Shown piece after piece: positions 1,079 to 64,000 of a stretch of 64,000 nucleotides of DNA. The position numbers and the translations under genes are program-made. The stretch covers positions 1,963 through 65,962 of the forward strand of contig CBDUZS010000004.1 in the NCBI GenBank assembly GCA_965371785.1, written 5' to 3'. Position 1 is the stretch's first letter. Each line of letters starts with the position of its first letter. This DNA is from an uncultured bacterium. GTDB lineage: Bacteria; Fermentibacterota; Fermentibacteria; Fermentibacterales; JCC-6. Below the pieces are notes generated by a model, which ran no database searches, was not told the origin of the DNA, and saw only the letters and a program-made list of their open reading frames with translations.

Positions 1079-1092
1079 GCCGGGACAGGCAG

Positions 1093-2778: not shown

Positions 2779-2797
2779 TTCCGGAAAGGACCGTCAG

Positions 2798-5039: not shown

Positions 5040-5073
5040 GCCGAGTGTACGGCGGATCCTGTAGGAGCCTGAT

Positions 5074-5499
5074 ATGAAGAAGGAATTCAACCCCAGGATA
5101 ACCAGTTTTCTGTGTAAGTGGTGTTCTTACACGGGAGCGGACCTGGCTGGTACCAGCAGACTGCAGTATCCGACATCGATCATCCCCCTGATGGTGATGT
5201 GCTCCAGCAGGGTCGATCCGATTTTTCTCATCAAGGCGTTCCTGAACGGTTCCGATGGTGTCATGCTCGGAGGTTGTCACCCTGGAGACTGTCACTACGA
5301 AACAGGCAACTACCATGCGAGAAGAAGATTTGCGATCGTGAAGAGTGTTTTCGAATCCCTCGGGCTCGAGGCTGACAGGCTGAAGTTATCCTGGATATCC
5401 GCATCGGAGGGGCCGAAATTCGCCCGGGTTGCCAACGAGTTCACCGAAGAGATCATCAGGCTCGGCGAGAATCCGACACGTAAGAACATTTTCCTGTGA
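5074..5499 (+). CDS. mvhD: MvhD/FlxD-type [2Fe-2S] electron-transfer subunit (methyl-viologen-reducing hydrogenase delta subunit family)
   Basis: Hallmark CKWCSYTGADLAG ... CSSRVDP ... GCHPGDCHY motifs. AGGAG RBS before ATG 5074. 141 aa. Confidence 0.85.
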   Translation: MKKEFNPRITSFLCKWCSYTGADLAGTSRLQYPTSIIPLMVMCSSRVDPIFLIKAFLNGSDGVMLGGCHPGDCHYETGNYHARRRFAIVKSVFESLGLEADRLKLSWISASEGPKFARVANEFTEEIIRLGENPTRKNIFL

Positions 5500-5528
5500 A
5501 AGAGGCTGACAGTGCGGCGGAGGAGCTG

Positions 5529-8500
5529 ATGGAAAACTGCAGTAACACGGTTCTCGTGCTTGGCGCCGGCATCGCGGGAATACAGGCTGCTCTGGATCTC
5601 GCGGAGATGGGAGCGGAGGTGCACCTCGTCGAGGATACACCCACTATTGGCGGAAGAATGCCGCAACTCGACAAGACGTTCCCGACAAATGACTGCTCCG
5701 TATGCATACTCGCTCCAAAGATGACCGAGTGCATCAGGCACCCGCTCATCAAGCTGCACGTGCTGTCCAGCCTCGAGGAGATATCGGGTTCGCCGGGGAA
5801 TTTCAGATGCAGGATAATCGAACGGGCAAAGTACGTTGATCCAGTCAAATGCGTATCCTGCGGCCTCTGTGAGGAGAAGTGCCCCGTAAAGCTCGATGAC
5901 GAATTCGATGCCGGACTCCGGAAAACGAAAGCCATCTCACGCTACTTCCTCCAGAGCGTTCCTTCCGAGTACACGATCAACCCCGAACATTGCCTCTACC
6001 TTACAAAGGGAGTCTGCAGACTCTGCGAAAAGGTCTGTCCGGCAGATGCGATAAACTTCGAGGATCAGGACAGGGAGATCGAAATTCTGGCTGGTGCAGT
6101 CATCCTCGCGACAGGTATCGATCCATTCGATCCAATTGGCTTCGGTCACTTCGGATACCACAGGTACAGCAACGTCGTAACCTCTCTCGAATTCGAGCGT
6201 ATGCTCTCCGCATCGGGCCCATTCGGCGGACACGTAGTGAAAGCGTCAGACGGCAAGCCGCCTAAAAGGCTGGCCTTCATCCAGTGTGTCGGTTCGAGGG
6301 ACGAGGGTATCGACAGGAACTACTGTTCGTCCGCCTGCTGCATGTTCGCCATAAAGCAGTCCATAATAGCAAGGGAACACAGCAGGGACCTGGAAGCAAC
6401 GATCTTCTACATGGACATAAGGGCTTTCGGCAAGGATTTCGACAGGTATTACGACAAGGCCGAGAAGCAGTACGGCGTAAGCTTCAAGAGATCCAGAGTA
6501 GCCGATATCATTGAGCTTCCGGACGGCAGCCTGAAACTGAAGTACACATTCGAGAACGGCGACATACAGTACGAAGTCTTCGACATGGTCGTTCTCTCGA
6601 TCGGTCTCGAACCCCGCAGTATCAACAGGAAACTGTCGAAGATCCTGGATGTGAAGCTGAACCGATTCGGGTTCTGCAGATCGAACACCTTCAGCCCTCT
6701 CAGCACCACCAGGGAGGGTGTGTTCGTATGCGGTGCAATGAACGGACCGAAAGATATCCCCGAGTCTGTGATATCCGCGTCAGGCGCTGTCGCGAATGCC
6801 GCCAGGTTCCTCGGGCTCGAAAGGCAGACCATTTCGACCGATGAAAAGACAATCGAAAAGGATGTTGCCGGGGAGAGACCCAGGGTCGGTGTGTTCGTGT
6901 GCCACTGCGGCATAAACATCGCTGGTGTCGTGGACGTGAAGGACGTAGCCGGTTACGCTGCCGGTCTCTACAATGTCGAACACTCCGAAGATGTAGTCTA
7001 CGCATGCTCTACCGATTGCCTGGAGACGATAAAGCAGCGTATCGAAGAGCATGATCTGAACAGGATTGTCGTCGCAGCCTGCACACCCAGGACCCACGAA
7101 CCTCTGTTCAGGGATACGATCAGTGAAGCCGGGCTGAACCCCTACCTGTTCGAGATGTCCAACATCCGTGACCAGTGCTCATGGGCGCACATGGACGAAC
7201 CAGAACTGGCAACGACAAAATCCAGGGATCTCGTGGAGATGGCTGTTGCCAAAGCGCGTGGTCTTGTTCCTTTGCAGAGACTTCCAATAGAGATCGATCC
7301 CGAAGCTCTTGTCATCGGCGGCGGGCTCTCCGGAATGACGGCGGCACTGGCCGTAGCGGATGCCGGGTACGAAGTCTTCCTGGTCGAGCGGGAAAACGTG
7401 CTCGGTGGCAATATGAGGGACATCTTCTTCAGTTTCGACGGGTCAGACCCCCAGCAGATTCTTACCGAAACCATCGAGAAAGTGCTTTCTCATGATAGGA
7501 TCAATGTATTTCTAGACAGCGAGATAACGGACATCTCCGGATACGTCGGGAACTTTCTCACCTCCCTCGTGAAGGGAGACGGATCGAGTGAAGAATTCAC
7601 CCATGGGGCAGTCATCGTAGCCACAGGCGGTGTACGCCACGAGACGGAGGATTACCTCTACGGTGAATCGAGTCGTGTGATCACTCAAATGGAATTCGAG
7701 CGGATGCTCCATGACAAGGCCTTTCCCGAAGGCCGGCTGCGGAATGTTGTAATGGTACAGTGCGTAGGTTCCAGAGAAGAAGGACGGATGTACTGCAGCC
7801 GTATCTGCTGTTCAAAGGCGGTAAAGAACGCCCTGGAACTGAAAAAGCGCAGGCGTAACACGAATATTTACTTCGCCTGCAGGGACATCAGAACCTATGG
7901 ATTCAGCGAGGAGTTCTATACGAGACTGCGGAACGAGGGAACACTGTTCTTCCGTTACACGCCCGAACGCAAGCCGCTCGTGAAGATGATCCAGCCGGAT
8001 GATCCGGACAGCAGGCTGAGGGTAACAGTCTTCGACTCCGTGCTGGAGGAGGAAGTCGTCATTGACGCCGACCTGCTGGTCCTGGCGACGGCTATCGACG
8101 CCCCGGAGGGGAACAGAAAGCTTGGTCAGATGCTCAAGGTACCGCTAAATTCCGACGGGCTGTTCCTGGAAGCACACGTGAAACTGCGCCCCGTTGACTT
8201 TGCCACCGAGGGTATTTTCGTCTGCGGGCTTGCCCACGGCCCCAAGGATATGAGTGAATCAATCGCCCAGTCCCTTGCGGCAGCCGCCAGGGCACTGACC
8301 TTCCTGTCGAAGAGGTCCATACTCGCCGAGGGTACCATTGCCCAGGTAAGGACTGACAGATGCTCCGGGTGCGGTTACTGCGAATCAGCATGCGCTTACT
8401 CAGCCATTGAAATCGATCCTGAAGAAAGCGTAGCCGTTATAAACGATGCACTTTGCAAGGGGTGTGGTGCGTGCGTCGCTTCATGCAGGTGTGGTGCTCT

Positions 8501-8588
8501 CGATCTTCGCGGATTCACCAACGATCAGCTCTTCTCGGTGTTCGATTCGCTTTCCATGGAGACTGTTGAGGGGAAAACAGCCGAATGA
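5529..8588 (+). CDS. hdrA: Fused 1.5x HdrA-like flavoprotein (FAD domain with DCSVC motif, inserted ferredoxin, then a second unit: 4-Cys N-domain, second FAD motif, C-terminal ferredoxin)
   Basis: The start is probably ATG 5529 (MENCSNT), with GGAGGAG 5 nt upstream. The track's GTG 5496 overlaps the mvhD stop and remains an alternative. Motifs in order: [19 protein letters not shown]; LDKTFPTNDCSVCILAPKM; CVSCGLCEEKCPV; FIQCVGSRDEG..CCMFAIKQ; RVGVFVCHCGINIAG; LVIGGGLSGMTAALAV; VQCVGSREEGRMYCSRICC; CSGCGYCESACAYSA..CKGCGACVASC. Confidence 0.85.
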   Translation: MENCSNTVLVLGAGIAGIQAALDLAEMGAEVHLVEDTPTIGGRMPQLDKTFPTNDCSVCILAPKMTECIRHPLIKLHVLSSLEEISGSPGNFRCRIIERAKYVDPVKCVSCGLCEEKCPVKLDDEFDAGLRKTKAISRYFLQSVPSEYTINPEHCLYLTKGVCRLCEKVCPADAINFEDQDREIEILAGAVILATGIDPFDPIGFGHFGYHRYSNVVTSLEFERMLSASGPFGGHVVKASDGKPPKRLAFIQCVGSRDEGIDRNYCSSACCMFAIKQSIIAREHSRDLEATIFYMDIRAFGKDFDRYYDKAEKQYGVSFKRSRVADIIELPDGSLKLKYTFENGDIQYEVFDMVVLSIGLEPRSINRKLSKILDVKLNRFGFCRSNTFSPLSTTREGVFVCGAMNGPKDIPESVISASGAVANAARFLGLERQTISTDEKTIEKDVAGERPRVGVFVCHCGINIAGVVDVKDVAGYAAGLYNVEHSEDVVYACSTDCLETIKQRIEEHDLNRIVVAACTPRTHEPLFRDTISEAGLNPYLFEMSNIRDQCSWAHMDEPELATTKSRDLVEMAVAKARGLVPLQRLPIEIDPEALVIGGGLSGMTAALAVADAGYEVFLVERENVLGGNMRDIFFSFDGSDPQQILTETIEKVLSHDRINVFLDSEITDISGYVGNFLTSLVKGDGSSEEFTHGAVIVATGGVRHETEDYLYGESSRVITQMEFERMLHDKAFPEGRLRNVVMVQCVGSREEGRMYCSRICCSKAVKNALELKKRRRNTNIYFACRDIRTYGFSEEFYTRLRNEGTLFFRYTPERKPLVKMIQPDDPDSRLRVTVFDSVLEEEVVIDADLLVLATAIDAPEGNRKLGQMLKVPLNSDGLFLEAHVKLRPVDFATEGIFVCGLAHGPKDMSESIAQSLAAAARALTFLSKRSILAEGTIAQVRTDRCSGCGYCESACAYSAIEIDPEESVAVINDALCKGCGACVASCRCGALDLRGFTNDQLFSVFDSLSMETVEGKTAE

Positions 8589-9966: not shown

Positions 9967-9971
9967 GGAGA

Positions 9972-12331: not shown

Positions 12332-12377
12332 TTCTGCTTGATGCATTCCCCTGTTTGACACGGCGGGGCAGCTGAAC

Positions 12378-16859: not shown

Positions 16860-16941
16860 CGGCAACAAGCCCTCACTTCTCACGGCTTCCATGTAGGAAT
16901 GACGACGCTATACACTCCCACTGCCGGGAAGGAGTAAATCC

Positions 16942-17637
16942 ATGAGCAGTCAACAAGAGTTTGCCTTGCCGAAGTGCGCTTACTGCAAGGAGGAAAGGAA
17001 GGTCTGTACAAATCCTGCTGGAACCGGTCCCGTCTGGTGCCCGACTCTTACTCTGGAGGTTCTGGTCAGCAAAGCTTTCGAGGAGTACGATGACCGCGGC
17101 ACCATGGAGCTCGCTAGAGCTGCCACCGTACAGGAAGGTGAATGCTACATCGGCAGGTCGAGGGGTGCCGAAGCCGCTCCCTACCCCGTAAAGCCCAGGG
17201 CTCTGGAGATAATCGAACTCGCCGGGAAAATGGGCTACAGCAGAATAGGCATTGCCTTCTGCACGGGGCTGATGGAGGAGGCAAGGCTCTTCAGTGAAAT
17301 TCTCATATCAGCTGGTCTGGAGGCTGTTTCCGTCTGCTGCAAGGTGGGAAGAACTCCGAAGGAGAGAATAGGTGTTCTCGACGATCAGAAGATCCGTATC
17401 GGGGAGTTCGAGGCGATGTGCAGCCCGGTTGCCCAGGCTCGCATTCTCGATCGGAGCGGGACGGACCTCAACGTAGTCATCGGGCTTTGCGTCGGCCATG
17501 ATTCGCTGTTCTTCAAATACAGCTCAGTCCCGGTAACGGTGCTCGTAGCGAAGGACAGGGTTACGGGCCACAATCCCGCAGCGGTTCTGTACACCGCTCA
17601 CAGCTACTACAGGAACCTGTTGAAGGGACCTTTCTGA
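16942..17637 (+). CDS. Cys-rich metal-binding protein, DUF1847-like
   Basis: 231 aa. CAYCKEERKVC..WCP and LCVGHD motifs. AGGAG RBS before ATG 16942. The DUF assignment is from memory of the family signature. Confidence 0.45.
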   Translation: MSSQQEFALPKCAYCKEERKVCTNPAGTGPVWCPTLTLEVLVSKAFEEYDDRGTMELARAATVQEGECYIGRSRGAEAAPYPVKPRALEIIELAGKMGYSRIGIAFCTGLMEEARLFSEILISAGLEAVSVCCKVGRTPKERIGVLDDQKIRIGEFEAMCSPVAQARILDRSGTDLNVVIGLCVGHDSLFFKYSSVPVTVLVAKDRVTGHNPAAVLYTAHSYYRNLLKGPF

Positions 17638-27136: not shown

Positions 27137-27146
27137 GGCCAGCTCC

Positions 27147-33039: not shown

Positions 33040-33099
33040 CAGTGTATGTAAATATCGAACAGGATCTCCTCCGTAAACGTTCATTAAAAGATGCGATTC

Positions 33100-33198
33100 G
33101 CCTTCTCATTCCGTCTGCTCGAAACCAGCCGATCGCTTAAGCATAACTCCTTTACCCGATCTTCCGTCAATCATCACTTTCACCGGATATTCGAGCAT
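33100..33198 (+). repeat. ~100-nt direct repeat copy A: relic 3' end of a PPDK_N-family gene on the minus strand (partner at 36400..36498)
   Basis: The shared core CTACCCGATCTTCCGTCAATCATCACTTTCACCGGATATTCGAGC is identical in both copies. On the minus strand it encodes LEYPVKVMIDGRSGKGVMLKRS, which matches the C-terminus of the 36403..39384 protein. Confidence 0.7.
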
Positions 33199-33372
33199 GA
33201 ACGGATCTGCTTCGAGGATGGCTGTCTCTTGACCCGCCAGCGCCGTCGGGGCATCTACAGAGAGCGGCACCAGATCCTCACACACCATCCGGAAGGATCG
33301 ATATTGAGGGACAGGAATCTCGACCGCATAGCAGGCAAGCGGGGAACCGACCCGATACCCCTCTACTCGCTA

Positions 33373-36399: not shown

Positions 36400-36498
36400 T
36401 TTTCATTCGATCCGCTCGAGATCAGACGATCTCTTGAGCATTACTCCTCTACCCGATCTTCCGTCAATCATCACTTTCACCGGATATTCGAGCCTGAT
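36400..36498 (+). repeat. ~100-nt direct repeat copy B, forming the genuine 3' end of the minus-strand gene 36403..39384
   Basis: See copy A; about 90% identity over ~95 nt. Confidence 0.7.
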
Positions 36499-41504: not shown

Positions 41505-43862
41505 CTATCTGGTCAGGTACCCGATTGCCGAGTCGGTATTTCCATCCATGACAACCGACAGGCTTGCTCCATCGGACTCCATGGATACCTGAACTACCTT
41601 GATCTGTTTTGCCAGGTGCTTCGCGCCGGGAACGAGCTTGCACAGCCTGTTCCGTGACTTCATGAAGAAATCCTCGTTGAATATTATGCCTGGTTCGTCC
41701 GGGTACAGCGGCAGGTATATGATTCCCGCTTCGACCAGGTCCTGGAAGAAATGTGTTCCGAAAGACAGATCGGGCATGTACCCCTTCTTCATCCTGGCGA
41801 CTTCGATAAGCATTGCGGTGTTGTTGATGTCGGCGTAACCGACCTTGACGCCGAGTTTGATGTCTCCCCTGCTCCCCCACCTGCCGGGCCCAATCAGTAT
41901 GAATTTCCGCTGAGGCAGAACCTTGTTCAGCCTACCGACAACGTGTCCCACTTCAATGAGTTCTTCGAGACTTTCCAGCCTGTCGTACTCCACAGGGTCA
42001 ACGTAGACGACGAATTCGATGCCTTCACAGATGCCGGATGTAATGTACTTACCGGCGGTGAATACTATGTCCTCCTCGGGAACATCGTCCGGGACGACCA
42101 CCTCTCCGATTTCTCCGGAATAGCTCTGTGGTCTGCACTGGAGCAGGTAGGGAACCTGGATGTCATCGGCGTATGCGAATTCGACGTCTACGGGAACACC
42201 TATTTCCTTCTCCAGTATCTGGAGTATCGTCTGAATCAGCAGAGGGAACGGGCTTCTCGAGAGCAGGCGAGAGAATGTAATGACCGTTTCCTCGTTCTCC
42301 ACGTTGAAAAGGCTTCCCATCGGCGGAGAGAGGTTACCATCTTTGTATAGTGATATGATGTAAGAGAGAACGGGATAACTGCTTCCATGTGCCTTTACGA
42401 GATCGTCGAAGAGAACGGTCTCGAACCTGCGGTTTTCGAGATTGATCACGTCGATATGCTTCTGGGCATATCGAATCGTTTCCTCGGGTGTGACATTCAC
42501 TCTCAGACCCGGCTGTCCGGGGCAGAGAAGCATCGGAAAATCCTGACCCGTCCTGTCCACTGCCCTGGTTCCAAGGCCTGTAACCAGCCTTACTATTCCG
42601 TCCTCGCGCCTGATCCTGGGAGACCACCGGAACTCGTTCCTGCTGAAAGCTACACCTGCAAAAGCGGGGAAGTAGTACTTGCCGACCCGTTTTCCGACGA
42701 CTTCCTGGATGATGATTCCCATTTCCTCGTTGAAATCGAGAAGGCCGCGCTCCCTTCTGTACTCTATCGGGTCGGGACTGAACACACTTGCATAGACTTC
42801 CATTATCGCGTCTGCAAGCGCTTCCAGCCTTTCCATCTTGCTTCCGACGTTGGCGACGAAGAGGCTCTTGTATTTACCCGCAAAGGCAGACCCTACACTG
42901 TCTTCGAGCAGACTGGACGAGCGGACAACGAGCGGTACGTTTCCGAACTGATCGAGCGCAACGTTGAGCCCCGACATTATTCCCGCTGGCAGCAGAGAGC
43001 TCTTGAAGATCTGCCGAAGCAGACTGTACTCCTTTCTAAGCTCATCCGGATCGGAATATTTTATCGACAACAGTTCTTCGAGTGCATTGTGGTGGATGAA
43101 TTCGAAGATGGCATCACTGGATATGTACCATGTTTTGGGGACCTTCAGGTTCCTGAGAACGACGTTGTCTTTCCTGGCGGAATAGGATTCCAGTATCTTT
43201 TTCGCCCTGAACAGACCCGCTGCCTTTCCCCCGAGTCTGCCGCTGCCCGTGGCCGGGCCGATCGTGTGGTCGAGAACCTCGATGAAGTCAATAATTCTTA
43301 CACGGTTCTTGGTCGTGTTGATGTATGTGAGATCGGTACTGAACAGCCTCCTGATGAGAGCGACTCTGATTCCCATGCTCTCTTCCTTGTCGAGCACCTT
43401 GTGTGATTCGGGAAGAAGGGAGAACCTGTCGAGAGCCGCACTGAGCTCGACCAGAGGTACATCTTTCTGCTCTACCAGGATGGAGAGGAACCGTGTGCTT
43501 TCGTACCGGAGCCAGCGGGTCAGCATTGCGGATATCTCGCTCGAGGACAGTTCCTCCTCTGCGATCCTGAAAACCTCGCTGGTGAAGAACTCGATTGCGG
43601 AATGGTTGATCCTCGGCATCGGCTGGTTTTCTCCCCAGGCCGCACCCGTTTCGTAATCGTCAGGACTGTATACCAGCAGGCGTTCCATGACGTCGCTCAT
43701 CTTCTTCACGTTACGTTTGAACAGGTAGTTCATCATCTTCCGGCCAAGACGTTTCATGAGAATGGGATTGGTTTCGCTGAGAAGGCTGACGATCACCTTC
43801 CATTCAGGATCACTTCTCTCAGTGTTTTTCTTCCTGATATCGCGTTTGTCGGCATCGTGCAT
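41505..43862 (-). CDS. PPDK_N (PEP/pyruvate-binding ATP-grasp) domain protein without receiver domains; third paralog
   Basis: GGKAAGLFRA and VRSSSLLEDSVGSAFAGKY. C-terminal ILIGPGRWGSRGDIKLGV ... SFGTHFFQD. 785 aa. Confidence 0.7.
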   Translation of the reverse strand: MHDADKRDIRKKNTERSDPEWKVIVSLLSETNPILMKRLGRKMMNYLFKRNVKKMSDVMERLLVYSPDDYETGAAWGENQPMPRINHSAIEFFTSEVFRIAEEELSSSEISAMLTRWLRYESTRFLSILVEQKDVPLVELSAALDRFSLLPESHKVLDKEESMGIRVALIRRLFSTDLTYINTTKNRVRIIDFIEVLDHTIGPATGSGRLGGKAAGLFRAKKILESYSARKDNVVLRNLKVPKTWYISSDAIFEFIHHNALEELLSIKYSDPDELRKEYSLLRQIFKSSLLPAGIMSGLNVALDQFGNVPLVVRSSSLLEDSVGSAFAGKYKSLFVANVGSKMERLEALADAIMEVYASVFSPDPIEYRRERGLLDFNEEMGIIIQEVVGKRVGKYYFPAFAGVAFSRNEFRWSPRIRREDGIVRLVTGLGTRAVDRTGQDFPMLLCPGQPGLRVNVTPEETIRYAQKHIDVINLENRRFETVLFDDLVKAHGSSYPVLSYIISLYKDGNLSPPMGSLFNVENEETVITFSRLLSRSPFPLLIQTILQILEKEIGVPVDVEFAYADDIQVPYLLQCRPQSYSGEIGEVVVPDDVPEEDIVFTAGKYITSGICEGIEFVVYVDPVEYDRLESLEELIEVGHVVGRLNKVLPQRKFILIGPGRWGSRGDIKLGVKVGYADINNTAMLIEVARMKKGYMPDLSFGTHFFQDLVEAGIIYLPLYPDEPGIIFNEDFFMKSRNRLCKLVPGAKHLAKQIKVVQVSMESDGASLSVVMDGNTDSAIGYLTR

Positions 43863-54198: not shown

Positions 54199-54495
54199 AT
54201 GAAGTACTGGCGCAAGCCCCTGGACATCGACAAGGTGAAGATCCCGCACGGTACCGTCACCATCATCGCAGAAAGGTGCAAGGGTTGTGGCTTCTGTGTG
54301 GAGTACTGCCCGAAGGAAGTTCTGGTCATGTCCGAAGAGTTCAATGCAAAGGGTTATCATCCTCCCAAGGTTATCAAGGAGGGCGAATGCGTCAACTGCA
54401 ACCTCTGCGAGATGATATGCCCCGACTTCGCCATCTTCAGCGTTGAATCACCCGAAGAGGAATCACCGGAAGAGTCCGGGAACTCAGAGGAATAA
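54199..54495 (+). CDS. 2-oxoacid:ferredoxin oxidoreductase delta subunit (2x[4Fe-4S] ferredoxin)
   Basis: CKGCGFCVEYCP and CVNCNLCEMICP. The acidic C-tail is typical of PorD/KorD. Confidence 0.8.
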   Translation: MKYWRKPLDIDKVKIPHGTVTIIAERCKGCGFCVEYCPKEVLVMSEEFNAKGYHPPKVIKEGECVNCNLCEMICPDFAIFSVESPEEESPEESGNSEE

Positions 54496-54508
54496 GGAGG
54501 GAATCGCT

Positions 54509-55666
54509 GTGAAAGCAGACCCAGCAGGTGTGCTGACCGGTGTCCACTACCTGGACGGTGACTTCGCTTGCGGTGAGGGCGCGATGGCCGCGGGCTGCCG
54601 TTTCGTGGCAGGATACCCGATCACGCCCTCTACAGAAGTTGTGGAGAGGATCTCGCGGAGATTCCCATTCATGGGAGGAACGTTCATCCAGATGGAGGAC
54701 GAACTGGGGAGTATGGCAGCGGTTGTTGGCGCCGCATGGACGGGATCGAAGTCCCTGACCGTCACCAGTGGACCCGGATTCAGCCTGATGATGGAGAACA
54801 TCGGACTGGCCGCGATGATGGAAACACCCTGCGTAATCGTGAACGTTATGCGCGGGGGACCGTCTACCGGACTGCCGACGATGGTCGGGCAGGCTGACAT
54901 CATGCAGGCGCGCTGGGGTTCTCATGGCGACTACGAAATAATTGCCCTCAGCCCGCAGTCCCCTCAGGAGGCCTTCGACCTCTGCATCGAAGCCTTCAAC
55001 CTCTCGGAGGTCTACAGGGTACCGGTGATGCTGATGCTGGATGAATGCGTCGGCCACATGACCGAGAAGGTAGTGATTCCTCCGGCTTCGGAGATAGAGA
55101 TCACTCCCAGGATACTCTCCTCCAAGAGCCCTGAAGATTACTATCCCTACGATTTCGAAGGGGATTCCATTCCCGAGTTCGTCAGGGCAGGCGACGGGTA
55201 CAGGTTCCACACCACAGGACTGACCCATGACAAACGGGGTTATCCTCTAATGAGCACGGACTGCCAGGAGTGGAACGTCCGCCACCTGATAGACAAGATA
55301 CGGAACAACGTTGACAAGATCACGCGATACGATGAAGAGGATCTCGATGGAGCAGAAGTAGTGGTTCTTGCCTACGGAATCACCTCCAGGGTCACCCGCA
55401 TGGGGATCGACATGGCGAGGAAGAAGGGGGTCAAGGTCGGCTTCATAAGGCTGATCGTTATCTGGCCCTTCCCCGAGAAGCTCATCAGGGACCTCGCCTC
55501 TAAGGTCAAGGCTTTTGTTGTTCCGGAGATAAACTACGGGCAGATAGTGCTCGAGGTGGAGAGGTGCGCCGGGGACAAGGCTGAAGCGATATGCGTACCC
55601 CACGGGGGAGGCAGTGTACACGACCCGGAGTGCATCTGCAAGGCGATCATGGAGGCAGCGAAATGA
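54509..55666 (+). CDS. 2-oxoacid:ferredoxin oxidoreductase alpha subunit
   Basis: GTG 54509 with AAGGAGGG RBS. GYPITPSTE and TSGPGFSLM motifs. Confidence 0.85.
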   Translation: MKADPAGVLTGVHYLDGDFACGEGAMAAGCRFVAGYPITPSTEVVERISRRFPFMGGTFIQMEDELGSMAAVVGAAWTGSKSLTVTSGPGFSLMMENIGLAAMMETPCVIVNVMRGGPSTGLPTMVGQADIMQARWGSHGDYEIIALSPQSPQEAFDLCIEAFNLSEVYRVPVMLMLDECVGHMTEKVVIPPASEIEITPRILSSKSPEDYYPYDFEGDSIPEFVRAGDGYRFHTTGLTHDKRGYPLMSTDCQEWNVRHLIDKIRNNVDKITRYDEEDLDGAEVVVLAYGITSRVTRMGIDMARKKGVKVGFIRLIVIWPFPEKLIRDLASKVKAFVVPEINYGQIVLEVERCAGDKAEAICVPHGGGSVHDPECICKAIMEAAK

Positions 55667-56556
55667 GCGCACCAGAGTCAGGTACAGCAGCAACCGTAGA
55701 GCATCCGATATCACCATACCTCCGGATGGATCGTATTCCCCACATATGGTGTCCCACTTGCGGAATAGGCACCGTCGTCAAGTGTTTCGCAACGGCCCTG
55801 GGAGAACTGGAGATGGACCTGGACAAGTGCGCCATCGTCTCCGGAATAGGGTGTACCGGCCGGGTGGCCGGGTACATGAAACTCGATGCGTTCCACACGA
55901 CTCACGGAAGGGCGATACCATTCGCAACTGGTCTCCACCTGGGCAGACCCGAACTGAATGTTACCGTGTTCTCCGGGGACGGCGACCTGGTGGGCATCGG
56001 TGGTAACCACTTCATCCATGCCGCCAGAAGGAATATCGACCTTCTGGTGATCCTGATAAACAACTTCATCTACGCCATGACCGGCGGTCAGAACGCTCCG
56101 ACGACACCGATCTCTGCAAAGTCATCCACCATGCCCTTCGGCAATTACGAACAGCCGTTCAACATCCCCTACCTCGCTGACTGCTGCGGCGCCAACTACG
56201 TGGCACGCTGGACGAGCCTGCACATAAGAAGGGTTACCAAGGCCTTCAAGGAAGCTCTCCAGAAGAAGGGCTTCCGTCTGATCGAAGTCATAACCCCCTG
56301 CTCCACTCTCTACTCGCGGCTGAACAAGCTTGGATCCGGGCTGGATCTGATGCGTTTCTATCACGACAACGCCGAGATCCGCCATGGAGCCGACACCAGA
56401 GAGCTGGCGATTGACTTCCAGAAGAAGATCATCTGCGGCAAGTTCATCGACAGGGAGAGACCATCCTTCAGTGAAAGCAGGACCGCACACTACGAGAGAA
56501 CGCTCGGAGACAAGTTCGTTCCCATGCCCCCGGATGGGGGGTGGCTCCATGAGTAA
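55663..56556 (+). CDS. 2-oxoacid:ferredoxin oxidoreductase beta subunit (TPP-binding)
   Basis: WCPTCGIG, GIGCTGR and GDGDLVGIGGNH TPP motif. Confidence 0.85.
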   Translation: MSAPESGTAATVEHPISPYLRMDRIPHIWCPTCGIGTVVKCFATALGELEMDLDKCAIVSGIGCTGRVAGYMKLDAFHTTHGRAIPFATGLHLGRPELNVTVFSGDGDLVGIGGNHFIHAARRNIDLLVILINNFIYAMTGGQNAPTTPISAKSSTMPFGNYEQPFNIPYLADCCGANYVARWTSLHIRRVTKAFKEALQKKGFRLIEVITPCSTLYSRLNKLGSGLDLMRFYHDNAEIRHGADTRELAIDFQKKIICGKFIDRERPSFSESRTAHYERTLGDKFVPMPPDGGWLHE

Positions 56557-57148
56557 GAGGATCGAAATACGCATTACCGGGTTCGGAGGACAGGGCGTCG
56601 TGCTCTCAGGTCATATCGTCGGGCGTGCTTTTGCAGTCGAAGCCGGACACCACGCAACCATGATACAGAGCTTCGGTCCCGAAGCACGTGGTTCCGCGTG
56701 CAGCACCACACTCACCCTTTCAGATACCGAGGTGCTCTACCCGTACATACACAGGCCGGACTTCTTCGTCGTCATGTCCTCCGAGGGCTACGACAAGTTC
56801 AGAGACGAACTCAAACCAAAGGGCATCCTGTGCTACGAAAAGGATCTCGTGAAGCCTGAACTGAAAAAGGGCCAGCCCTCCTATGGGATATCCTCGACGA
56901 GAATCGCCGAGTCACTGGGCAGGACTATTGTACAGAACATAGTGATGGTCGGTTTCTTTGCCGCAGCTTCAGGGATCGTCAGCCGTTTACAGATGCGGAG
57001 CTCGGTGGAGCATTCCGTTCCTCCAGGCACGGAGGAGCTGAACCTCAAAGCATTCGACGCCGGCTGGAACTACTTTCAGGAGGAGTACGGCAAGGGGAAA
57101 ACCGGCAGTGCGAAAAAGAAGTCAGCCGGAACGAAGAAGACTGGATAG
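56549..57148 (+). CDS. 2-oxoacid:ferredoxin oxidoreductase gamma subunit
   Basis: ATG 56549 (MSKRIEIRITGFGGQGVV) overlaps the beta-subunit stop. Lys-rich C-terminus. Confidence 0.8.
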   Translation: MSKRIEIRITGFGGQGVVLSGHIVGRAFAVEAGHHATMIQSFGPEARGSACSTTLTLSDTEVLYPYIHRPDFFVVMSSEGYDKFRDELKPKGILCYEKDLVKPELKKGQPSYGISSTRIAESLGRTIVQNIVMVGFFAAASGIVSRLQMRSSVEHSVPPGTEELNLKAFDAGWNYFQEEYGKGKTGSAKKKSAGTKKTG

Positions 57149-57151
57149 CAT

Positions 57152-60100
57152 ATGCAGGACCAAGAAACTGACCGGGATCCGGAGATCATGGAGGAGGAAC
57201 CGGTAGTCGAGAAGAGGGCTCTGGTCATAGGTGGAGGAATTGCGGGCATACAGGCCGCTCTCGACCTTGCGGATGCAAGGATTCCAGTGACCCTCGTGGA
57301 GAGGTCCCCGGCCCTGGGCGGCCGGATGGCTCAGCTGGCCAAGACCTTTCCCTCGATGTACTGCTCCACTTGAATATTCGGGCCCAAGGCCATGGATGCC
57401 GGGCGGCATCCTCTGATCGACCTGGTGACGAATGCGGAGGTCATCGAATGCGAAGGTGACCCTGGCAGTTTCCATGTGAAAATCCGAAGGTATCCCCGCT
57501 ACGTGCTAGAGTCCTGCGTGGCATGCGGCCAGTGCGAGGATGTCTGCCCACAGGTCGGCGGCAACGAGTTCGACATGGGACTCAAGGCCAGGAAAGCGAT
57601 CTACAGACCCTACCCGCAGTCCGTTCCATCTACTTATACCATCGATCCCGATGCCTGCCTCAATTTCATGAGCTTCCTGACCGAGAAACAGAAGCAGAGG
57701 TTCGCGAAAGTTCAGACAGCCAAGCAAAAGAAAGACTCCGACTACGTACCCAACATCCTCGTGTGCGGTCACTGTCAGAAGGCCTGTGACGTGAACGCAA
57801 TAGACTTCGACATGACGGTAGAAGACCTCGAATTAGACGTTGGAGCCATACTGGTCGCTGTCGGCTTCAAGGAGTTCGACGCAAGGAAGCTTGGTAACTA
57901 CGGGTACGGACGCCTGCCGAACGTCGTCACAAGCCTCGAGCTCGAACGCATGCTAAGTCCCGCAGGTGTGACACAGGGTCACGTGGTGCGTCCCTCCGAC
58001 AGAAAGGTTCCGAGGCGCATTGTATTCATCCAGTGCGTCGGGGCAAGGGGTGAGGGCGGCAGACCTTACTGCAGCAGGTTCTGCTGCATGAACGCGGTCA
58101 AGGATTCCATGCTGATACGTCAGCATCAACCAGAAATCGAGGAGATATCCATCCTCTACACCGACCTGCGTGCCTTCGGAAAAGGTTTCGACGACTTCGT
58201 TCAGCGCTCGTTCAACGAGGAGAGTGCCGTGTACATCAGGGGACGACCCGCGAAAGTGGATCACCTGCCCGACGGTGACACGCTGGAGGTCTTCGTAGAG
58301 GACACCCTGGGTCACGAACAGAGACGCATACCTGCAGACATGGTCGTCCTTTCGGTTGCAGCAGCACCAAACGATGGTGCGGTGGAGCTGGCAGGCATTC
58401 TGGGAATAGACACTGACGAGTACGGATTCATCGCCCGTAAAGATGCAGCAATCTCGGCCGTCGAATCCACAAGGGAGGGCATCTACGTTTGCGGGAGTGC
58501 AGTAGGTCCCCAGATAATACCCGACTGCGTTGCGCAGGCGTCGGCATCTGCAGCGAGAGCAGGACTCTACCTTGCTGCACACAGGAAGGAAGAGGAAGAG
58601 AGGAAGGTCGAGCCCATGGACCTCTCCGGTCCTCCACGCGTTGGCGTTCTGATCTGTCATTGTGGGATGAACATAGCAGGCGTGCTGGACATCGAGAACC
58701 TGGTGGACTTCGCATCGACGCTTCAAGACGTTGTCGCCGTGAAGGAAGACATCTTCGCATGCTCCATGACAGGTCAGGACGAGCTGATCGAGATGATAAA
58801 GGAACACGGTCTCAACAGGATTGTTGTTGCAGCCTGTACACCCCGCACGCACGAGCCGGTTTTTCGCGATGCACTCGACCGGATAGGATTCAACCCCTAC
58901 CTGCTGGAGATGGCCAACATCAGGGATCAGTGCTCCTGGGTCCACTCGAAGCAGGTGAACGAAGCACAGGAGAAAGCCAGAGTGCTGATCCACATGAGCG
59001 TGGCAAGGGCAAAGAGACTCGAACCGCTGTACCAGACCGAAGCACCCATGACCAGGGCAGCTCTGGTCATCGGGGGCGGAATCGCAGGTATCCAGGCCGC
59101 AACCGACATGGCCATTCAGGGATTCCACGTAACACTCGTGGAGAAGACGGGCCGGCTCGGGGGACGCCTGGCAGACCCATGTCTGAAGCATCTCTACCCG
59201 AATATGAGATTAGCCTCGGAAGTGCTTGAAAAGAAGACCAGACTGCTCGAAGAAAGCGGTGCTGACGTACTGCTCAACACCGAAGTCGACCGGATAGAAG
59301 GGTTTGTCGGCAGCTTTGAAGTTACGTTCAAGGGAGAAACGACCGGAACGGCACCATTCGGCGCGATAATCATCGCTATCGGAGCAGACCTCTACGAGCC
59401 CGGGGACGGTGAGTTCGGGTACGGGAAGTTCGGCAACGTGATTACAAGCGAGCAACTCGAGAAAGCTTTCTGCAAAGGTGATGAGCTGAAATTCGGTGGG
59501 ATAGAGCCTAAGACCGCATCGTTCATTCTCTGCGTAGGCTCCCGGGAGAGAGACGGTTTCACAGGCTGTTCCCGATACTGCTGCCCGACCGCTATCAAAC
59601 AGGCGATGGAGCTGCACCGTCGGGGGATCGACACGACCGTTTTCTACAGGGACATAAGGACTGTATCCACGGGTGCCGAGGAGATGTACCGGCAGGCCCG
59701 TGGCGAGGGAGTCCTATTCATCAGGATTCCCCCCGAGCAGAAACCGGAGGTAGAGGGCAGAAAGCGGGTCGAGGTCGTCCGATGCTTCGATGACCTCCTC
59801 GGCAGGAAACTGGAAGTACCAACCGACCTCGTTGTACTCAGTGTGGGCATGAGACCCCTTCAGCCCGAGACGGAAACGTTCAAGGAGATGCTCAAGACCA
59901 GCGTCGGACTGGACGGATTCCTGCTCGAACGTCATGCCGATCTGGCACCCGTCGAGACAGTGGTCGAAGGAGTCATGCTGGCCGGGACGGCTCAGGGACC
60001 CAAGGATATCGTCGATTCGGTCGCACAGGCTTCGGCCGCAGCGGCAAAGGCAACAGTGTTCCTGGCGTTCGACAGTGTAAAACTCGATCCGACGATATCC

Positions 60101-60340
60101 GTTGTCAACGAAGAGAAATGCCGTGGCTGCGGTAAATGCCAGGAGATCTGCGACTTCAACGCACCGAAACTCGAAGAGATCGAACCCGGGCTCTTCGTAG
60201 CAAGAATTAATGCTTCCCTCTGCAAGGGCTGCGGAACCTGCGCCAGCTGGTGTCCGTCCGGAGCAATCGTCGCGAAGCACTTCACTGACGGACAGGTATA
60301 CGCGATGATCAGCGCCTTCTTCGGAGAAGAGAGCGTATGA
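57152..60340 (+). CDS. hdrA: Selenocysteine-containing fused 1.5x HdrA-like flavoprotein (in-frame UGA at 57371-57373 read as Sec)
   Basis: ORFs 57152..57373 and 57392..60340 share one frame. Across the UGA the protein reads [26 protein letters not shown], which matches the HdrA motif DCSxC-ILAPKM with Sec at the second Cys. The rest is collinear with 5529..8588 ([15 protein letters not shown]; [15 protein letters not shown]; C-terminal [19 protein letters not shown]). Confidence 0.8.
57394..57411 (+). promoter_or_regulatory. SECIS-like hairpin 21 nt downstream of UGA (GGAUGCC-GGGC-GGCAUCC)
   Basis: Perfect 7-bp stem with a 4-nt loop. Its position and spacing are identical to the second Sec site at 62617..62634. 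Confidence 0.6.
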
Positions 60341-60804
60341 CACCCGCGAAGAAGAGGACCAGCTGGGACCCCTCTATTGTCGTTTTCGCATGCAACTGGT
60401 GCTCCTACGCCGGGGCAGACACGGCTGGGGTATCGCGGTTCGAACACCAGCCGCACTTCAGGATGATAAGGGTGATGTGCTCGGGGAGAATTCAGCCGGC
60501 ATTCGTCTTTCGTGCTTTCGAGAAGGGTGCGGACGGCGTCATGGTTTCCGGGTGCCATTTCGGTGAGTGCCACTACATCTTCGGTAATGAGAGAGCAGTC
60601 GAACAGTTCGAGAAAACGATGAACGTGGTGAAGATGCTCGGAATAGAGGAGGGAAGGCTTCGGCTCGAGTGGATAAGCTCTGCTGAAGGAGCACGATTCG
60701 CCGAGATCATCGACGAATTCACAGACCAGGTTCGTGCGCTGGGTCCGAATCCCCTGGGCGGCAGGCCGGGCGGAAAAATACGCAAGAAGGGTGTTGCAGA
60801 GTGA
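60337..60804 (+). CDS. mvhD: MvhD/FlxD-type subunit
   Basis: CNWCSYAGADTAG, CSGRIQP and GCHFGECHY motifs. The ATG overlaps the hdrA stop. Confidence 0.85.
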   Translation: MTPAKKRTSWDPSIVVFACNWCSYAGADTAGVSRFEHQPHFRMIRVMCSGRIQPAFVFRAFEKGADGVMVSGCHFGECHYIFGNERAVEQFEKTMNVVKMLGIEEGRLRLEWISSAEGARFAEIIDEFTDQVRALGPNPLGGRPGGKIRKKGVAE

Positions 60805-61955
60805 GCAGTCAGAACGCCGGATCGATTCAGGAGCTGGCCAGCAGAACTAGAGCCTGGGCCTGCTACGACTGTGGGAAGTGTACGGCTACATGCCCGATAA
60901 CAAGGGCAGGCGCTGACTACAGCCCGCGGAAGCATGTTCTCGAAACGAACCTGGCTCACATTGAGGAGATCAGGGCCGATGGAAGCCTCGCAGTTTGCCT
61001 TACGTGCAGCCAGTGCGACGAGAGGTGCCCCGTCGAGGTCGATTATACCGGGCTGGTCCAGGGTCTCCGCGAGATGGTCTTCGACCCTTCTGCCGAACCG
61101 GAGTGCCCACACGGCGGTGCTCTCCAGTCCATTATGAGAATGATGGCGCGGGGGGGCACACAGCAGGCCAGACTCGACTGGATCGACGATTCCCTCGAGG
61201 TAAGCGCGAAGAAGGGGAAGGTCTTCTACTGGACCGGCTGCACCATGTACTTCGATGCCTTCTTCCCGGAATTCGAAGTTGCAACTCTGGGGGGAACGAA
61301 AGCAGCTATCCGATTACTCAACGCCCTCGGTGAGAAACCCGTGGTGTCACCAGACGAGAGGTGCTGCGGACACGATCTCCTCTGGAACGGTGACAGAAAC
61401 AGCTTCGAAGCTCTCGCGAAGTACAATATCAGCCTGGTGGAGAAGAGCGGAGCCGAACTCCTGGTTACATCCTGCGCCGAGTGCCTCCGCACGTGGAAAA
61501 TCGACTACAAACCCTACTACAGCACGAATCCACCGAAGATCATGCACATCTCAGAGCTGCTGGCCAACAGAACCGAGGATCTGAAACTGCAGATGACGGA
61601 AGAGAAGAAGGTCACATTCCAGGACCCCTGCCGCATGGGTCGACACCTCGGGATATACGACCCGCCAAGGCAGGTGCTGACCTCCGTTCCAGGCGTGGAA
61701 CTGATCGATATGCCGCGATCTGGTCGAGGTGCAATCTGCTGCGCGGGCGGCACCTGGTCGAACTGCGACCGCTACTCAAAGAAGATCCAGGTGAACCGCC
61801 TCAGGGAGGCCAGGGCAACCGACGCCGAGATACTGGTAACCGCCTGTCCGAAGTGCCAGGTTCACTACCGGTGCGCAATGAATGACCCGAACATCGGAGA
61901 CGATATCGCTATAGAGCTGCGCGACGTAGCAGAGATAGTCGCCGAAGCATTGTAG
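60801..61955 (+). CDS. HdrD-like (HdrC+HdrB fusion-type) protein: N-terminal 2x[4Fe-4S] ferredoxin plus two CCG domains
   Basis: CGKCTATCP and CSQCDERCP clusters. Two CCG motifs: ERCCGHDLLWNG..CAEC and AICCAGGTWSN..CPKC. GTG 60801 overlaps the mvhD stop. Confidence 0.7.
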   Translation: MSSQNAGSIQELASRTRAWACYDCGKCTATCPITRAGADYSPRKHVLETNLAHIEEIRADGSLAVCLTCSQCDERCPVEVDYTGLVQGLREMVFDPSAEPECPHGGALQSIMRMMARGGTQQARLDWIDDSLEVSAKKGKVFYWTGCTMYFDAFFPEFEVATLGGTKAAIRLLNALGEKPVVSPDERCCGHDLLWNGDRNSFEALAKYNISLVEKSGAELLVTSCAECLRTWKIDYKPYYSTNPPKIMHISELLANRTEDLKLQMTEEKKVTFQDPCRMGRHLGIYDPPRQVLTSVPGVELIDMPRSGRGAICCAGGTWSNCDRYSKKIQVNRLREARATDAEILVTACPKCQVHYRCAMNDPNIGDDIAIELRDVAEIVAEAL

Positions 61956-61987
61956 AAGAGTGTTCTGAACCAAGCGAAGGGAGGGTG

Positions 61988-64000
61988 ATGACTCCAGAGA
62001 AGACGGAGGATCAACTGAGGATCGGAGTGTTCGTCTGCGACTGCGGATCGAACATAGCCGGCACGGTTGATACCGCCGCACTCGCCGAATGGTCCAGCAG
62101 CCTGCCCGATGTGGTGTACGTCGGGAGGAACAGGTACTGCTGCGCGGACCCTGGTCAGAACGAAATCAAGGAGGCCATCGCTGAACACCGCCTTGACCGG
62201 GTGGTCGTAGCTGCCTGCACTCCCAGGCAGCACGAGTTCACGTTCAGGCAGTGTGTGAGCGATGCAGGGCTCAACCCCTACCTCCTCGAGATGGCCAACC
62301 TGAGGGAGCACTGCTCATGGGTTCACCGTAAGGACCCCGATGGTGCCAACCTGAAGGCCCGGGACCTGGTGGCGAGTGCAGTCGGGAGGGCTCACTTCCT
62401 CGAGCCGCAGGAGGAGATGACCATGCCTGTAACGCGAAAAGCGCTGGTCATCGGAGGCGGTATCTCAGGGATAGAAGCAGCCCTCGAACTCGCAGATTCA
62501 GGCCACAGGGTGGTCCTGGTGGAAAAGGAGGCATCAGTCGGTGGGATAATGGCACAACTCTACAAGACCTATCCCACAATGGACTGCTCGATATGAATAC
62601 TCGGGCCGAAGGCCATGGATGTCGGTCGGCATCCGAATATCGAGCTTCTGACGTTCTCCGAGATCGAAGAGGTTTCCGGTTACGTCGGTAACTTCACCGT
62701 CAGGATCAGAAAGAAAGCAAGGTACGTAGACCCCGATCAGTGCAATTCCTGCGGGGACTGTGTAGACGTTTGCCCCGTTGCCGTACCCGACGAGTTCCAG
62801 CTGGGTCTATCCTCGCGAAAAGCTATCTATATACCATTTCCGCAAGCGGTTCCCTGTACATACATCCTTAACATGAAGGACTGCCTGGGGAATAACCCCA
62901 TTGCATGCGGTGAGTGCGCAATAGTCTGTGAAAAGGAAGCAATCAACTACGACGACGAGGACGAGATCATAACGCGTGAGGTGGGAACGGTAATAATCGC
63001 CACCGGCCTCGACGTCTACGATCCAACCGAAATGGATGAGTACGGGTACTCTCGGTTCGACAACGTGATCACCTCTATGGAGTTCGAGCGGCTGATCTCC
63101 GCAGGCGGGCCAACTATGGGTCATTTCGTGAGACCATCCGATCAGACGCAGCCGAAACGCATTGGCTTCATCCAGTGCGTGGGTTCGCGAAACACGAAGA
63201 TCGGTAGACCCTACTGCTCCAACATCTGTTGTATGAACACGGTGAAGGACACCCTCCTCCTGGCCGAACACTACTCGGATATCGAGAACAACGTCTTCTA
63301 CCAGGATATCAGGGCGTTCGGAAAGTCCTTCGAGGACCTGTACCAGAGGTCCAAGGAAGCGGGAACCCGCTACATCAGGGGAATACCCGGTGACATAGAG
63401 GAGGATCCCGAAACCAGGAACCTCGTGCTCACCGTGGAGAACACGACTTCCGGGAAACTGGAGCGACATGAGCTGGACATGGTCGTTCTCTCCGTCGGCG
63501 TAGTGCCCTCCGAGGGTCAACAGAAGGTATCGAGCCAGTTCAATCTGTCGAAGACATCTGACGGCTTCTTCATGGAGTCGCACCCCAAACTCAGACCGGT
63601 GGAAGCACCCACAAGGGGCGTCTACTTCGCCGGATTCTGCGAAGCGCCAAAGGACATCAAGGACTCGGTCTGCCAGGCTGGAGCCGCAGCTTCCAAGGCT
63701 GGGGTTCTCCTCAACGCGGGCAAGATAAAGATCGAGGCGATAACCAGCGTTATAGATCCGGACCTGTGCATGAAATGCGGCATATGTGCGAAGGTCTGCC
63801 CGTACGGTGCAATTCACTGGAAGAAGGGTGAGATCGCCACCGTCATAGAAGCTGCCTGCGCCGGATGCGGCAACTGCGGCGCAGCGTGCGCTTTCGGTGC
63901 CATCACAATGCGCCACTTCACCGATGCCCAGCTCATGGCACAGATCAGGGCTATCCTGGCGGAGAATGCAAAGGACAAGGTCTTCGTCTTCGCCTGTAAC
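61988..64000 (+). CDS. hdrA: Selenocysteine-containing canonical HdrA fused to a C-terminal MvhD domain (3'-truncated at window edge; in-frame UGA at 62594-62596)
   Basis: ATG 61988 with GGGAGGG RBS. N-domain RIGVFVCDCGSNIAG. LVIGGGISGIEAALELAD. The motif TYPTMDCSI-U-ILGPKAMDVGRHPNIELL has Sec at the second Cys of DCSxC. Downstream: CNSCGDCVDVCPV, IQCVGSRNTKIGRPYCSNICCMNTVKD, CMKCGICAKVCPY..CAGCGNCGAAC. The last codons KVFVFACN begin an MvhD-type CNWC motif. Confidence 0.8.
62617..62634 (+). promoter_or_regulatory. SECIS-like hairpin 21 nt downstream of UGA (GGAUGUC-GGUC-GGCAUCC; GGUC apical loop)
   Basis: 7-bp stem with one G-U pair. The GGUC loop resembles the bacterial SECIS apical loop. 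It is a near-identical counterpart of 57394..57411. Confidence 0.6.

Follow-up and report, generated by a model that had tools for sequence, protein, structure and literature searches.

The stretch of DNA analysed here comprises 64,000 nucleotides of contig CBDUZS010000004.1 (positions 1,963 to 65,962; assembly GCA_965371785.1) from an uncultured bacterium and is referred to below as the window. Its segment 57152-60340 is very probably one gene for a fused BamE-like/HdrA-like electron-bifurcating flavoprotein, in which an in-frame UGA is decoded as selenocysteine (Sec) by means of a hairpin located downstream of the codon. The gene is here designated SecA, and a second Sec-HdrA gene in the same operon SecB. 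The continuity of the reading frame, the homology of the joined protein, the alignment of Sec with Cys, the conservation of the TGA and selection at the RNA level on the hairpin are all observed and are described in turn. The hairpin is given below as a selenocysteine insertion sequence (SECIS).

57152..60340, + strand: SecA, fused HdrA-like flavoprotein gene, 1062 codons with one in-frame UGA (predicted Sec74)
57362..57364, + strand: TGC codon, Cys71, partner Cys of the C-x-x-U pair, preceded by Tyr where Asp is the usual residue
57371..57373, + strand: in-frame UGA, predicted Sec74 of SecA, aligned with Cys197 of methanogen HdrA
57394..57411, + strand: predicted SECIS hairpin of SecA, GGAUGCC-GGGC-GGCAUCC, with a 7-bp stem

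A single reading frame with one internal TGA

The SecA frame runs from the ATG at 57152 to the TGA at 60338-60340, and its sole internal stop is the TGA at 57371-57373. A mechanical list of open reading frames (ORFs) cuts the gene at this codon into 57152-57373 (73 amino acids) and 57392-60340 (982 amino acids). A first-pass annotation, made from the letters of the sequence, had placed both pieces in the same frame of one gene and had read a continuous HdrA motif across the TGA; the single frame of 1062 codons was confirmed and the peptide reads as it was given there. The GxGxxG start of the Rossmann fold is encoded 5' of the TGA and the remainder of the flavin adenine dinucleotide (FAD) domain 3' of it. 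An exact look-up of the 982-amino acid product of the downstream ORF returned no record; the 73-amino acid upstream ORF and the MvhD protein encoded after SecA are on record.

A sense codon found at 57371-57373 on resequencing had been named in advance as an observation that would overturn the proposal, but the TGA is present in independent assemblies. The 90 nt around it are unchanged in a contig of another assembly (L124, ERZ25748748; 99.8% overall identity). The Logan contig L125 (run SRR22302361) corresponds to window positions 56315-57421 and is identical over all 1107 bases, with the TGA and the hairpin included.

The degenerate pattern K-T-[FY]-P-x3-C-x2-TGA-[IV]-x2-P-K has two matches in the window, against 0.00 expected from 100 shuffles. 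There are 23 candidate TGAs between long open frames in the window, and those that lie in real coding frames are the two HdrA sites only. TGA is also the commonest ordinary stop, ending 21 of the 34 Pfam-supported genes of the window, and the genetic code is therefore not reassigned. Since an NtrC-type sigma-54 activator and a histidine kinase are encoded in the window, the DNA is taken to be bacterial, so that a SECIS directly 3' of the UGA is to be expected. One further TGA candidate, at 54413, was rejected, as its translation is a low-complexity peptide.

Hairpins downstream of the two UGA codons

The hairpins of SecA and SecB were compared with each other, for which the following features of SecB are needed.

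61988..64000, + strand: SecB, second Sec-HdrA gene, with canonical domain order, cut by the window end
62594..62596, + strand: in-frame UGA of SecB (predicted Sec203), motif TYPTMDCSI-U-ILGPKAMDVGRHP
62617..62634, + strand: predicted SECIS hairpin of SecB, GGAUGUC-GGUC-GGCAUCC, at the distance from the UGA found in SecA

The perfect 7-bp hairpin that had been noted downstream of the SecA UGA is present, whereas its distance had been given as 21 nt and was counted here as 20 nt from the TGA to the start of the stem. The loop follows the UGA after 27 nt. Taken alone, the SecA hairpin has a minimum free energy (MFE) of -11.5 kcal/mol (z = -3.2), and one of 200 shuffles was equally stable. The SecB hairpin consists of 7 bp, including one G-U pair, and a 4-nt loop, and its 18 nt alone reach -8.8 kcal/mol. 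When the UGA is numbered as nt 1-3 the loop occupies nt 31-34 in both genes.

Folding and comparison with bacterial SECIS models had been proposed as a check. In the published consensus model (PMC13188914, Fig. 2A) an upper stem of 4-16 bp bears an apical loop of 3-9 nt whose first two bases include a G, followed by G or U; the spacing is 16-37 nt and the MFE -7.5 kcal/mol or lower. Both hairpins agree with all four properties: each has a 4-nt loop on a 7-bp stem, the loops are GGGC in SecA and GGUC in SecB, the distance from UGA to loop is 27 nt in both, and the energies are those given above. They share with the consensus bacterial SECIS and with that of E. coli fdhF a stem-loop that directly follows the UGA inside the coding sequence, a small loop starting with G-G/U and a spacing in the range of 16-37 nt (PMC13188914). 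A search of the whole window against Rfam at the gathering threshold gave no match, and a search of 57300-57500 with E up to 10 gave only a chance SAM/SAH match on the opposite strand. The fdhF loop has the same four bases as the GGUC loop of SecB; it lies about 9 nt nearer to the UGA than the loops described here, and the fdhF element has a bulged U, which is absent from them.

A second, small hairpin of the form GGCC-NAA-GGCC, corresponding to the G-P-K-A codons, is found 11-21 nt after the UGA (57381-57391 and 62604-62614). It precedes the SECIS stem in SecA, in SecB and in the closest SecA orthologues (L018 and L022), while in locus L081 it takes the form GGC/GCC. It may belong to an extended SECIS.

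Conservation of the TGA and selection on the hairpin

The degenerate pattern of motif and TGA was used to scan a collection of species-representative genomes, with one genome per species, and gave at least 120 loci. All 120 matches listed are HdrA genes in which this codon is TGA and the reading frame is open over a long distance on either side of it. Desulfobacterota make up the majority among the matches listed, which also include Chloroflexota, Planctomycetota, Bacillota, KSB1, Calditrichia and further groups. Two statements of the first-pass annotation were too narrow in this respect. Sec-HdrA had been described as known from a few methanogens and bacteria, but at least 120 species-level genomes have TGA at this codon. 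The 1.5x fused architecture had been called unusual, but 40 of the 120 loci listed show a collinear homologue of about 1050 amino acids across the TGA, as a single match over SecA residues ~24-1055, and many more are cut by the locus ends. The closest SecA orthologues among the matches listed come from metagenome-assembled genomes (MAGs) labelled Holophagae (71.7% identity over 1030 amino acids) and Planctomycetaceae (70.5% over 1056 amino acids). Both have kept the TGA, and neither has further stops or frameshifts over more than 1030 amino acids.

A hairpin of at least 5 bp with a G-rich loop, 22-27 nt after the UGA, is found in 116 of 122 sequences (the matches listed together with SecA and SecB), with AGGU as the loop in 55 and GGUC in 43. 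The sequences fall into two main registers, one with the loop AGGU at nt 26-29 (56 sequences) and the other, to which SecA and SecB belong, with GGUC at nt 31-34 (46 sequences). In the latter register 97% of the cells are paired, compared with 26-56% when the partners are slid. Pair 27-38 has changed between UA and GC in 10 sequences, and pair 29-36 between CG and UA in 11 sequences, with UG in 5 and no C-A mismatches. These compensatory changes cross the boundary between synonymous and replacement sites, in that an Ala to Val replacement (GCC to GUC) is coupled to the synonymous change CGG to CGA and an Asp to Glu replacement to His to Ser. The same helix was recovered independently by RNAalifold.

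The synonymous sites of the stem are practically invariant in the Sec genes. Over the stem the entropy of codon choice is about 0 bits, compared with 0.7-2.4 bits in the flanks, and the frozen codons include GAT (36/36), GCC (29/29), CAT (36/36), CTG (56/56), GAG (56/56) and CGG (56/56). Only five Cys homologues occur within the 120 loci listed, which is too few for a control, and 118 unique Cys-type homologues from metagenomes with the same K[LM]VExGRH peptide were therefore used. Codon choice is free in this set (0.8-2.5 bits). All seven pairs are formed in 2 of these 118 sequences compared with 54 of 56 Sec genes, and the mean MFE is -6.8 kcal/mol in the Cys-type and -10.7 kcal/mol in the Sec genes (Mann-Whitney p = 2e-19). 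In the SecA register, 18 Cys genes that encode the peptide [DE][AV]GRHP form no more than two to five of the seven pairs. The hairpin is thus an RNA element under selection, and its absence from Cys-type homologues of the same peptide points to a SelB-dependent mechanism.

One of the loci, L009 (JAPUUO010000083.1), is labelled Candidatus Bathyarchaeota and holds a Sec-HdrA gene with a bacterial-type hairpin (AGGU loop) directly after the UGA, which suggests a misbinned bacterial contig or a horizontal transfer.

The protein and the Cys/Sec pair

The joined SecA protein was aligned to HdrA, as the first-pass annotation had recommended. In a phmmer search against the PDB it matched 5odc_A, the HdrA of the methanogen Hdr-Mvh complex, with E = 7e-195 in four collinear pieces: SecA residues 19-170 correspond to HdrA 142-294, 203-419 to 294-510, 494-666 to 3-175 and 875-1058 to 470-651. 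The features of the HdrA family are present, with the CSxxCC Fe-S motif and the Lys region aligned to KYCSNVCCMYAMK, and the C-H-C-G motif of the N-terminal domain. SecA scored 991 bits against the NCBIfam equivalog model NF040770 (cut-off 1100) and 770 bits against NF041778 (cut-off 1400). As these scores are below the cut-offs, the protein is named HdrA-like and not CoB-CoM heterodisulfide reductase.

The alignment divides SecA into two units. Unit 1 (amino acids 19-480) consists of a TrxR-like FAD domain with the pair C71-x-x-U74 and an inserted ferredoxin domain, and has no N-terminal domain. In unit 2 (amino acids 494-1058) the N-terminal Fe-S domain of HdrA is followed by a second TrxR-like domain, which lacks the Cys pair, and by the 2x[4Fe-4S] ferredoxin domain at the C-terminus. 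The arrangement is that of a self-heterodimer, with the Cys197 equivalent in one unit and the N-terminal Fe-S domain in the other. In fused and tandem HdrAs the two are likewise present in a complementary manner, and Cys197 is the fourth ligand of the N-terminal [4Fe-4S] cluster of the partner protomer (PMC9012536).

By alignment count Sec74 corresponds to Cys197 of 5odc_A; in 9sfi_A, another solved HdrA, the aligned residue is given as X, a non-standard one. The earlier placement of the UGA at the second Cys of the motif therefore agrees with the methanogen structure, and also with two paralogues of the window that have Cys there. Among the Hdr structures that have been solved or published, some have Sec as the equivalent of Cys197. 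Sec197 of Methanococcus maripaludis HdrA takes part in a Cys-Sec link between the FAD and cluster A3 (PMC13518236), and in BamE, which is a fused HdrA dimer, the Cys59-Cys62 pair shuttles the low-potential electron (bioRxiv 10.64898/2026.04.10.717634).

Alternative explanations

Several observations weigh against the decoding of the UGA as Sec in a functional gene. Pfam scans detected no selA, selB or selD within the 64-kb window, and a tRNA scan of the same window found no tRNA and hence no tRNA-Sec. SecA is atypical in two places: Tyr70 (57359-57361) stands before the first Cys, where the other Sec loci listed have Asp (115 of 119) or Glu (4 of 119), and its loop is GGGC (57401-57404), where 44 of 46 sequences of that register have GGU among the matches listed. 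Both are identical in independent assemblies and are therefore real, and the atypical SecA may have a reduced function. The stability of the hairpins is also moderate when compared with synonymous shuffles, of which 3% are as stable in SecA and 8.5% in SecB. This weak signal in the single sequences is explained by the peptide MDAGRHP, which predisposes to a hairpin, and the strength of the case for Sec comes from the comparative data and not from the stability of a single hairpin.

The predisposing peptide leads to the possibility that the hairpin is a by-product of conserved MDAGRHP with no function as RNA. Five of the seven pairs are partly set by the amino acid sequence, in line with the shuffle values (p = 0.03 and 0.085), but the synonymous sites are frozen in the Sec genes only and over the stem only, Cys-type genes for this peptide lack the hairpin, and the coupled replacements, Ala to Val with CGG to CGA and Asp to Glu with His to Ser, preserve pairing across changes of the peptide itself. 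The by-product explanation was tested in this way and is not supported; it is considered very improbable. The same selection on the hairpin after the TGA is difficult to combine with a pseudogene whose TGA arose by nonsense mutation or by an error of assembly. The splitting of the gene by the ORF caller, and the Tyr in place of Asp and the GGGC loop near the TGA, could be taken as signs of decay. The TGA is found in independent assemblies, however, and at least 120 genomes have TGA at the same codon, as do the neighbouring paralogue and orthologues of 70-72% identity without other stops or frameshifts, so that mutation or error as an explanation is effectively refuted and retains hardly any probability.

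An intact locus could also encode two proteins, one of 73 amino acids and one of 982 amino acids starting at the ATG at 57392, or the UGA could act mostly as a stop and give truncated products, for example under selenium limitation. This ATG lies six codons after the TGA and is used by the gene calls of databases, and Sec insertion in bacteria is generally inefficient, which favours some truncation. The split would, however, sever the FAD-binding Rossmann domain between the GxGxxG strand and the rest and would lose the Cys pair. The ATG is accounted for as the conserved Met of a K-A-M-D peptide, where many orthologues have other residues, and the conservation of the hairpin would be left unexplained; two products are accordingly very unlikely. 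Read-through with a standard amino acid, with the UGA read as Cys, Trp or Gly by a near-cognate tRNA or under an altered code, would keep the protein whole. Cys would work at this position, as it does in the paralogues, and the insertion of Sec is itself something that we infer. On the other side, the code is unchanged, TGA being the most frequent ordinary stop (21 of 34 genes), and the hairpin is specific to Sec genes and missing from the Cys-type homologues of the same peptide, which leaves a standard amino acid at this codon with scarcely any credibility.

Proposed decoding and function

For the decoding of the SecA UGA as Sec, the standard bacterial SECIS mechanism would apply. SelB carrying Sec-tRNA(Sec) would bind the hairpin at 57394-57411 within the coding sequence and hand the Sec-tRNA(Sec) to a ribosome paused at the UGA at 57371-57373. 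SelB binding and the actual insertion of Sec, as well as a redox role of the residue and the physiological partners of SecA, are points that we infer from sequence comparison. Sec74 would take the place of the second Cys in the C-x-x-C pair (Cys194/Cys197 of methanogen HdrA), where it may ligate a cluster or may form a Cys-Sec redox pair, equivalent to Cys-Cys, on the path of the low-potential electron. Unit 1 would give the Cys/Sec pair and unit 2 the N-terminal Fe-S domain. As the units are complementary, the SecA polypeptide would act as its own heterodimer, with Sec74 acting in cis on the internal N-terminal-type domain. The downstream HdrA-MvhD gene with the TGA at 62594 would be recoded likewise.

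A more far-reaching proposal is that SecA and its close orthologues in the MAGs labelled Planctomycetota and Holophagae, together with the adjacent Sec-HdrA-MvhD, form an uncharacterised double-Sec Hdr-like complex coupled to the 2-oxoacid:ferredoxin oxidoreductase encoded upstream, and that the change from Asp to Tyr retunes the selenylsulfide or cluster-ligand chemistry. This is unlikely. If it were true, SecA would represent an HdrA bifurcation site of altered function and be more than another family member.

SecB and the surrounding operon

SecB, whose TGA (62594-62596) lies in the same operon, had been overlooked in the first-pass annotation. The start of the gene is GTG 61985 in the ORF list and ATG 61988 in the gene call of contig L122, a near-identical contig of another assembly (99.8% overall identity to the window) in which the 90 nt around the SecB TGA are identical. 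The 203-amino acid ORF at 61985-62596 stops within the Rossmann FAD motif according to the Pfam scan, and reading through the TGA yields HdrA. The complete gene is found at L122:2059-4512 and encodes 817 amino acids with the canonical HdrA domain order and a fused C-terminal MvhD domain. It is followed in L122, just past the end of the window, by HdrC-like and HdrB-like genes.

The remaining operon genes in the window are the following.

54443..57148, + strand: genes for the alpha, beta and gamma subunits of a 2-oxoacid:ferredoxin oxidoreductase, ending 3 nt before the start of SecA
60337..60804, + strand: MvhD/FlpD-type [2Fe-2S] adaptor subunit, Cys form (PF02662, E = 6e-51)
60801..61955, + strand: HdrD/GlpC-like subunit with an HdrC-like 2x[4Fe-4S] region and two CCG (HdrB-like) domains

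The start of the MvhD gene overlaps the stop of SecA (ATGA), and the cluster of MvhD at 90% identity includes proteins from Phycisphaerae/Planctomycetota MAGs. Together with the labels of the closest SecA orthologues, this cluster points indirectly to a Planctomycetota (Phycisphaerae) MAG as the probable host, where the Sec-HdrA hosts of the earlier literature are Deltaproteobacteria or Clostridium; the GTDB lineage given for the assembly is Fermentibacterota (Fermentibacteria, JCC-6). The HdrD/GlpC-like subunit is presumed to be the high-potential output module, and the 2-oxoacid:ferredoxin oxidoreductase is likely to be the source or sink of ferredoxin for the Hdr-like module. The order of the genes, 2-oxoacid:ferredoxin oxidoreductase alpha/beta/gamma, SecA, MvhD, HdrD/GlpC-like CCG protein, SecB(-MvhD), HdrC-like and HdrB-like, suggests a ferredoxin-linked module that may be bifurcating or confurcating.

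Cys-type paralogues in the window

The two Cys-containing paralogues cited in the first-pass annotation, near 5690 and 12590, have the sequences reported there. The first of them has the same architecture as SecA and serves for comparison only.

5496..8588, + strand: Cys-type paralogue with the same fused architecture as SecA (C-S-V-C), outside the Sec system

It reads TFPTNDCSVCILAPKM, with the Cys codon TGC at 5703, and the second paralogue reads TFPTNDCAMCVISPKL, with the Cys codon TGT at 12597. The gene at 12378-16859 encodes an HdrA of 1493 amino acids, in the Cys form, into which a GltD/NAD(P)-binding region is inserted. HdrAs built in this way are the 'HdrL' type of Desulfobacterium autotrophicum, and the matches listed include long forms with Sec, namely L015 and L077, with about 1420 codons after the TGA.

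The fused Cys paralogue also has a stable hairpin (5703-5750) at the same distance from the Cys codon, in which nt 27-30 pair with nt 36-39 around the loop AUCAG. Nt 13-51 fold with an MFE of -13.8 kcal/mol, a stability reached by only 1% of synonymous shuffles; the required G is missing from the loop. This hairpin may be the remnant of a SECIS in a gene that has gone from Sec to Cys; such conversions are described in PMC1794560.

Relation to known systems

Bacterial Sec-HdrA is well documented, and published surveys place HdrA among the largest families of bacterial selenoproteins (PMC1794560, PMC5029168). It is the fourth most abundant of them in Zhang et al. 2006 (PMC1794560), with seven copies in Syntrophobacter fumaroxidans, with hdrA-hdrA fusions and with clustering of the gene with Sec-FrhD(MvhD) and GlpC (PMC1794560). 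In a later survey (Peng et al. 2016, PMC5029168) the count of Sec-HdrA proteins reached 103, from 42 organisms; D. autotrophicum has both Sec-HdrA (HdrA1/A2) and Sec-HdrL (PMC2702500), and further documentation is found in PMC1976440. The SecA locus agrees with these systems (PMC1794560, PMC5029168, PMC2702500) in the position of the UGA in the FAD domain with a hairpin directly downstream, in the clustering with mvhD (frhD) and a GlpC/HdrD-like Fe-S subunit, and in the presence of several Sec and Cys paralogues in a genome. It differs from those described in that the MvhD and GlpC-like genes next to SecA are of the Cys type and that SecA has Tyr for Asp before the Cys pair.

Like methanogen HdrA (5odc; M. 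maripaludis Sec197, PMC13518236), SecA has its Sec at the equivalent of Cys197 in the D-C-x-x-C/U motif, and all HdrA domains are recognisable. Unlike it, the domain order is permuted and duplicated, as in a fused dimer, and the SECIS is of the bacterial type within the ORF, whereas the archaeal SECIS lies in the 3' untranslated region. The overall layout is shared with BamE from the class II benzoyl-CoA reductase of Geobacter metallireducens, a fused HdrA dimer of about 1000 amino acids with complementary domain loss, in which one unit has the N-terminal Cys pair (C59/C62) beside the bifurcating FAD and the other the N-terminal-type Fe-S domain (bioRxiv 10.64898/2026.04.10.717634). BamE has Cys at the pair, however, and the Sec of that complex is in BamF. 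The locus also differs, since no bamBC-type tungsten enzyme genes are adjacent to SecA and a 2-oxoacid:ferredoxin oxidoreductase is encoded upstream. The same fused complementary layout has been described for HdrA3/4 of anaerobic methanotrophic archaea (ANME) and for the HdrA of the Moorella thermoacetica MetFV-Hdr complex (PMC9012536).

SecA is accordingly an ordinary member of a known selenoprotein family and one more example of the well-known Sec-HdrA. It opens no new question; what Sec does at position 197 of HdrA is already under study in methanogen structures. Its value lies in annotation: gene callers, including those behind public gene calls, split both SecA and SecB at the UGA, so that redox enzymes of 117 kDa and ~90 kDa are reported as fragments and the selenium dependence of the organism is missed. 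As the SECIS sequences fall into two classes that covary cleanly and have a control of Cys homologues, they could be made into a covariance model for automatic detection.

Other genes of the window

Parts of electron-bifurcating systems are unusually dense in the window (1-17000 and 23462-28925), where four or five genes are HdrA-like, three encode free MvhD, each in the Cys form, and others encode HdrC/B-like and NuoF-like subunits. One protein of 1244 amino acids is a fusion of GltD-like, NuoG-like and molybdopterin domains. Three large paralogues at 33091-36303, 36403-39384 and 41505-43862 contain a PPDK_N domain (phosphoenolpyruvate-utilising, ATP-binding), and two of them have weak N-terminal matches to the response-regulator receiver domain.

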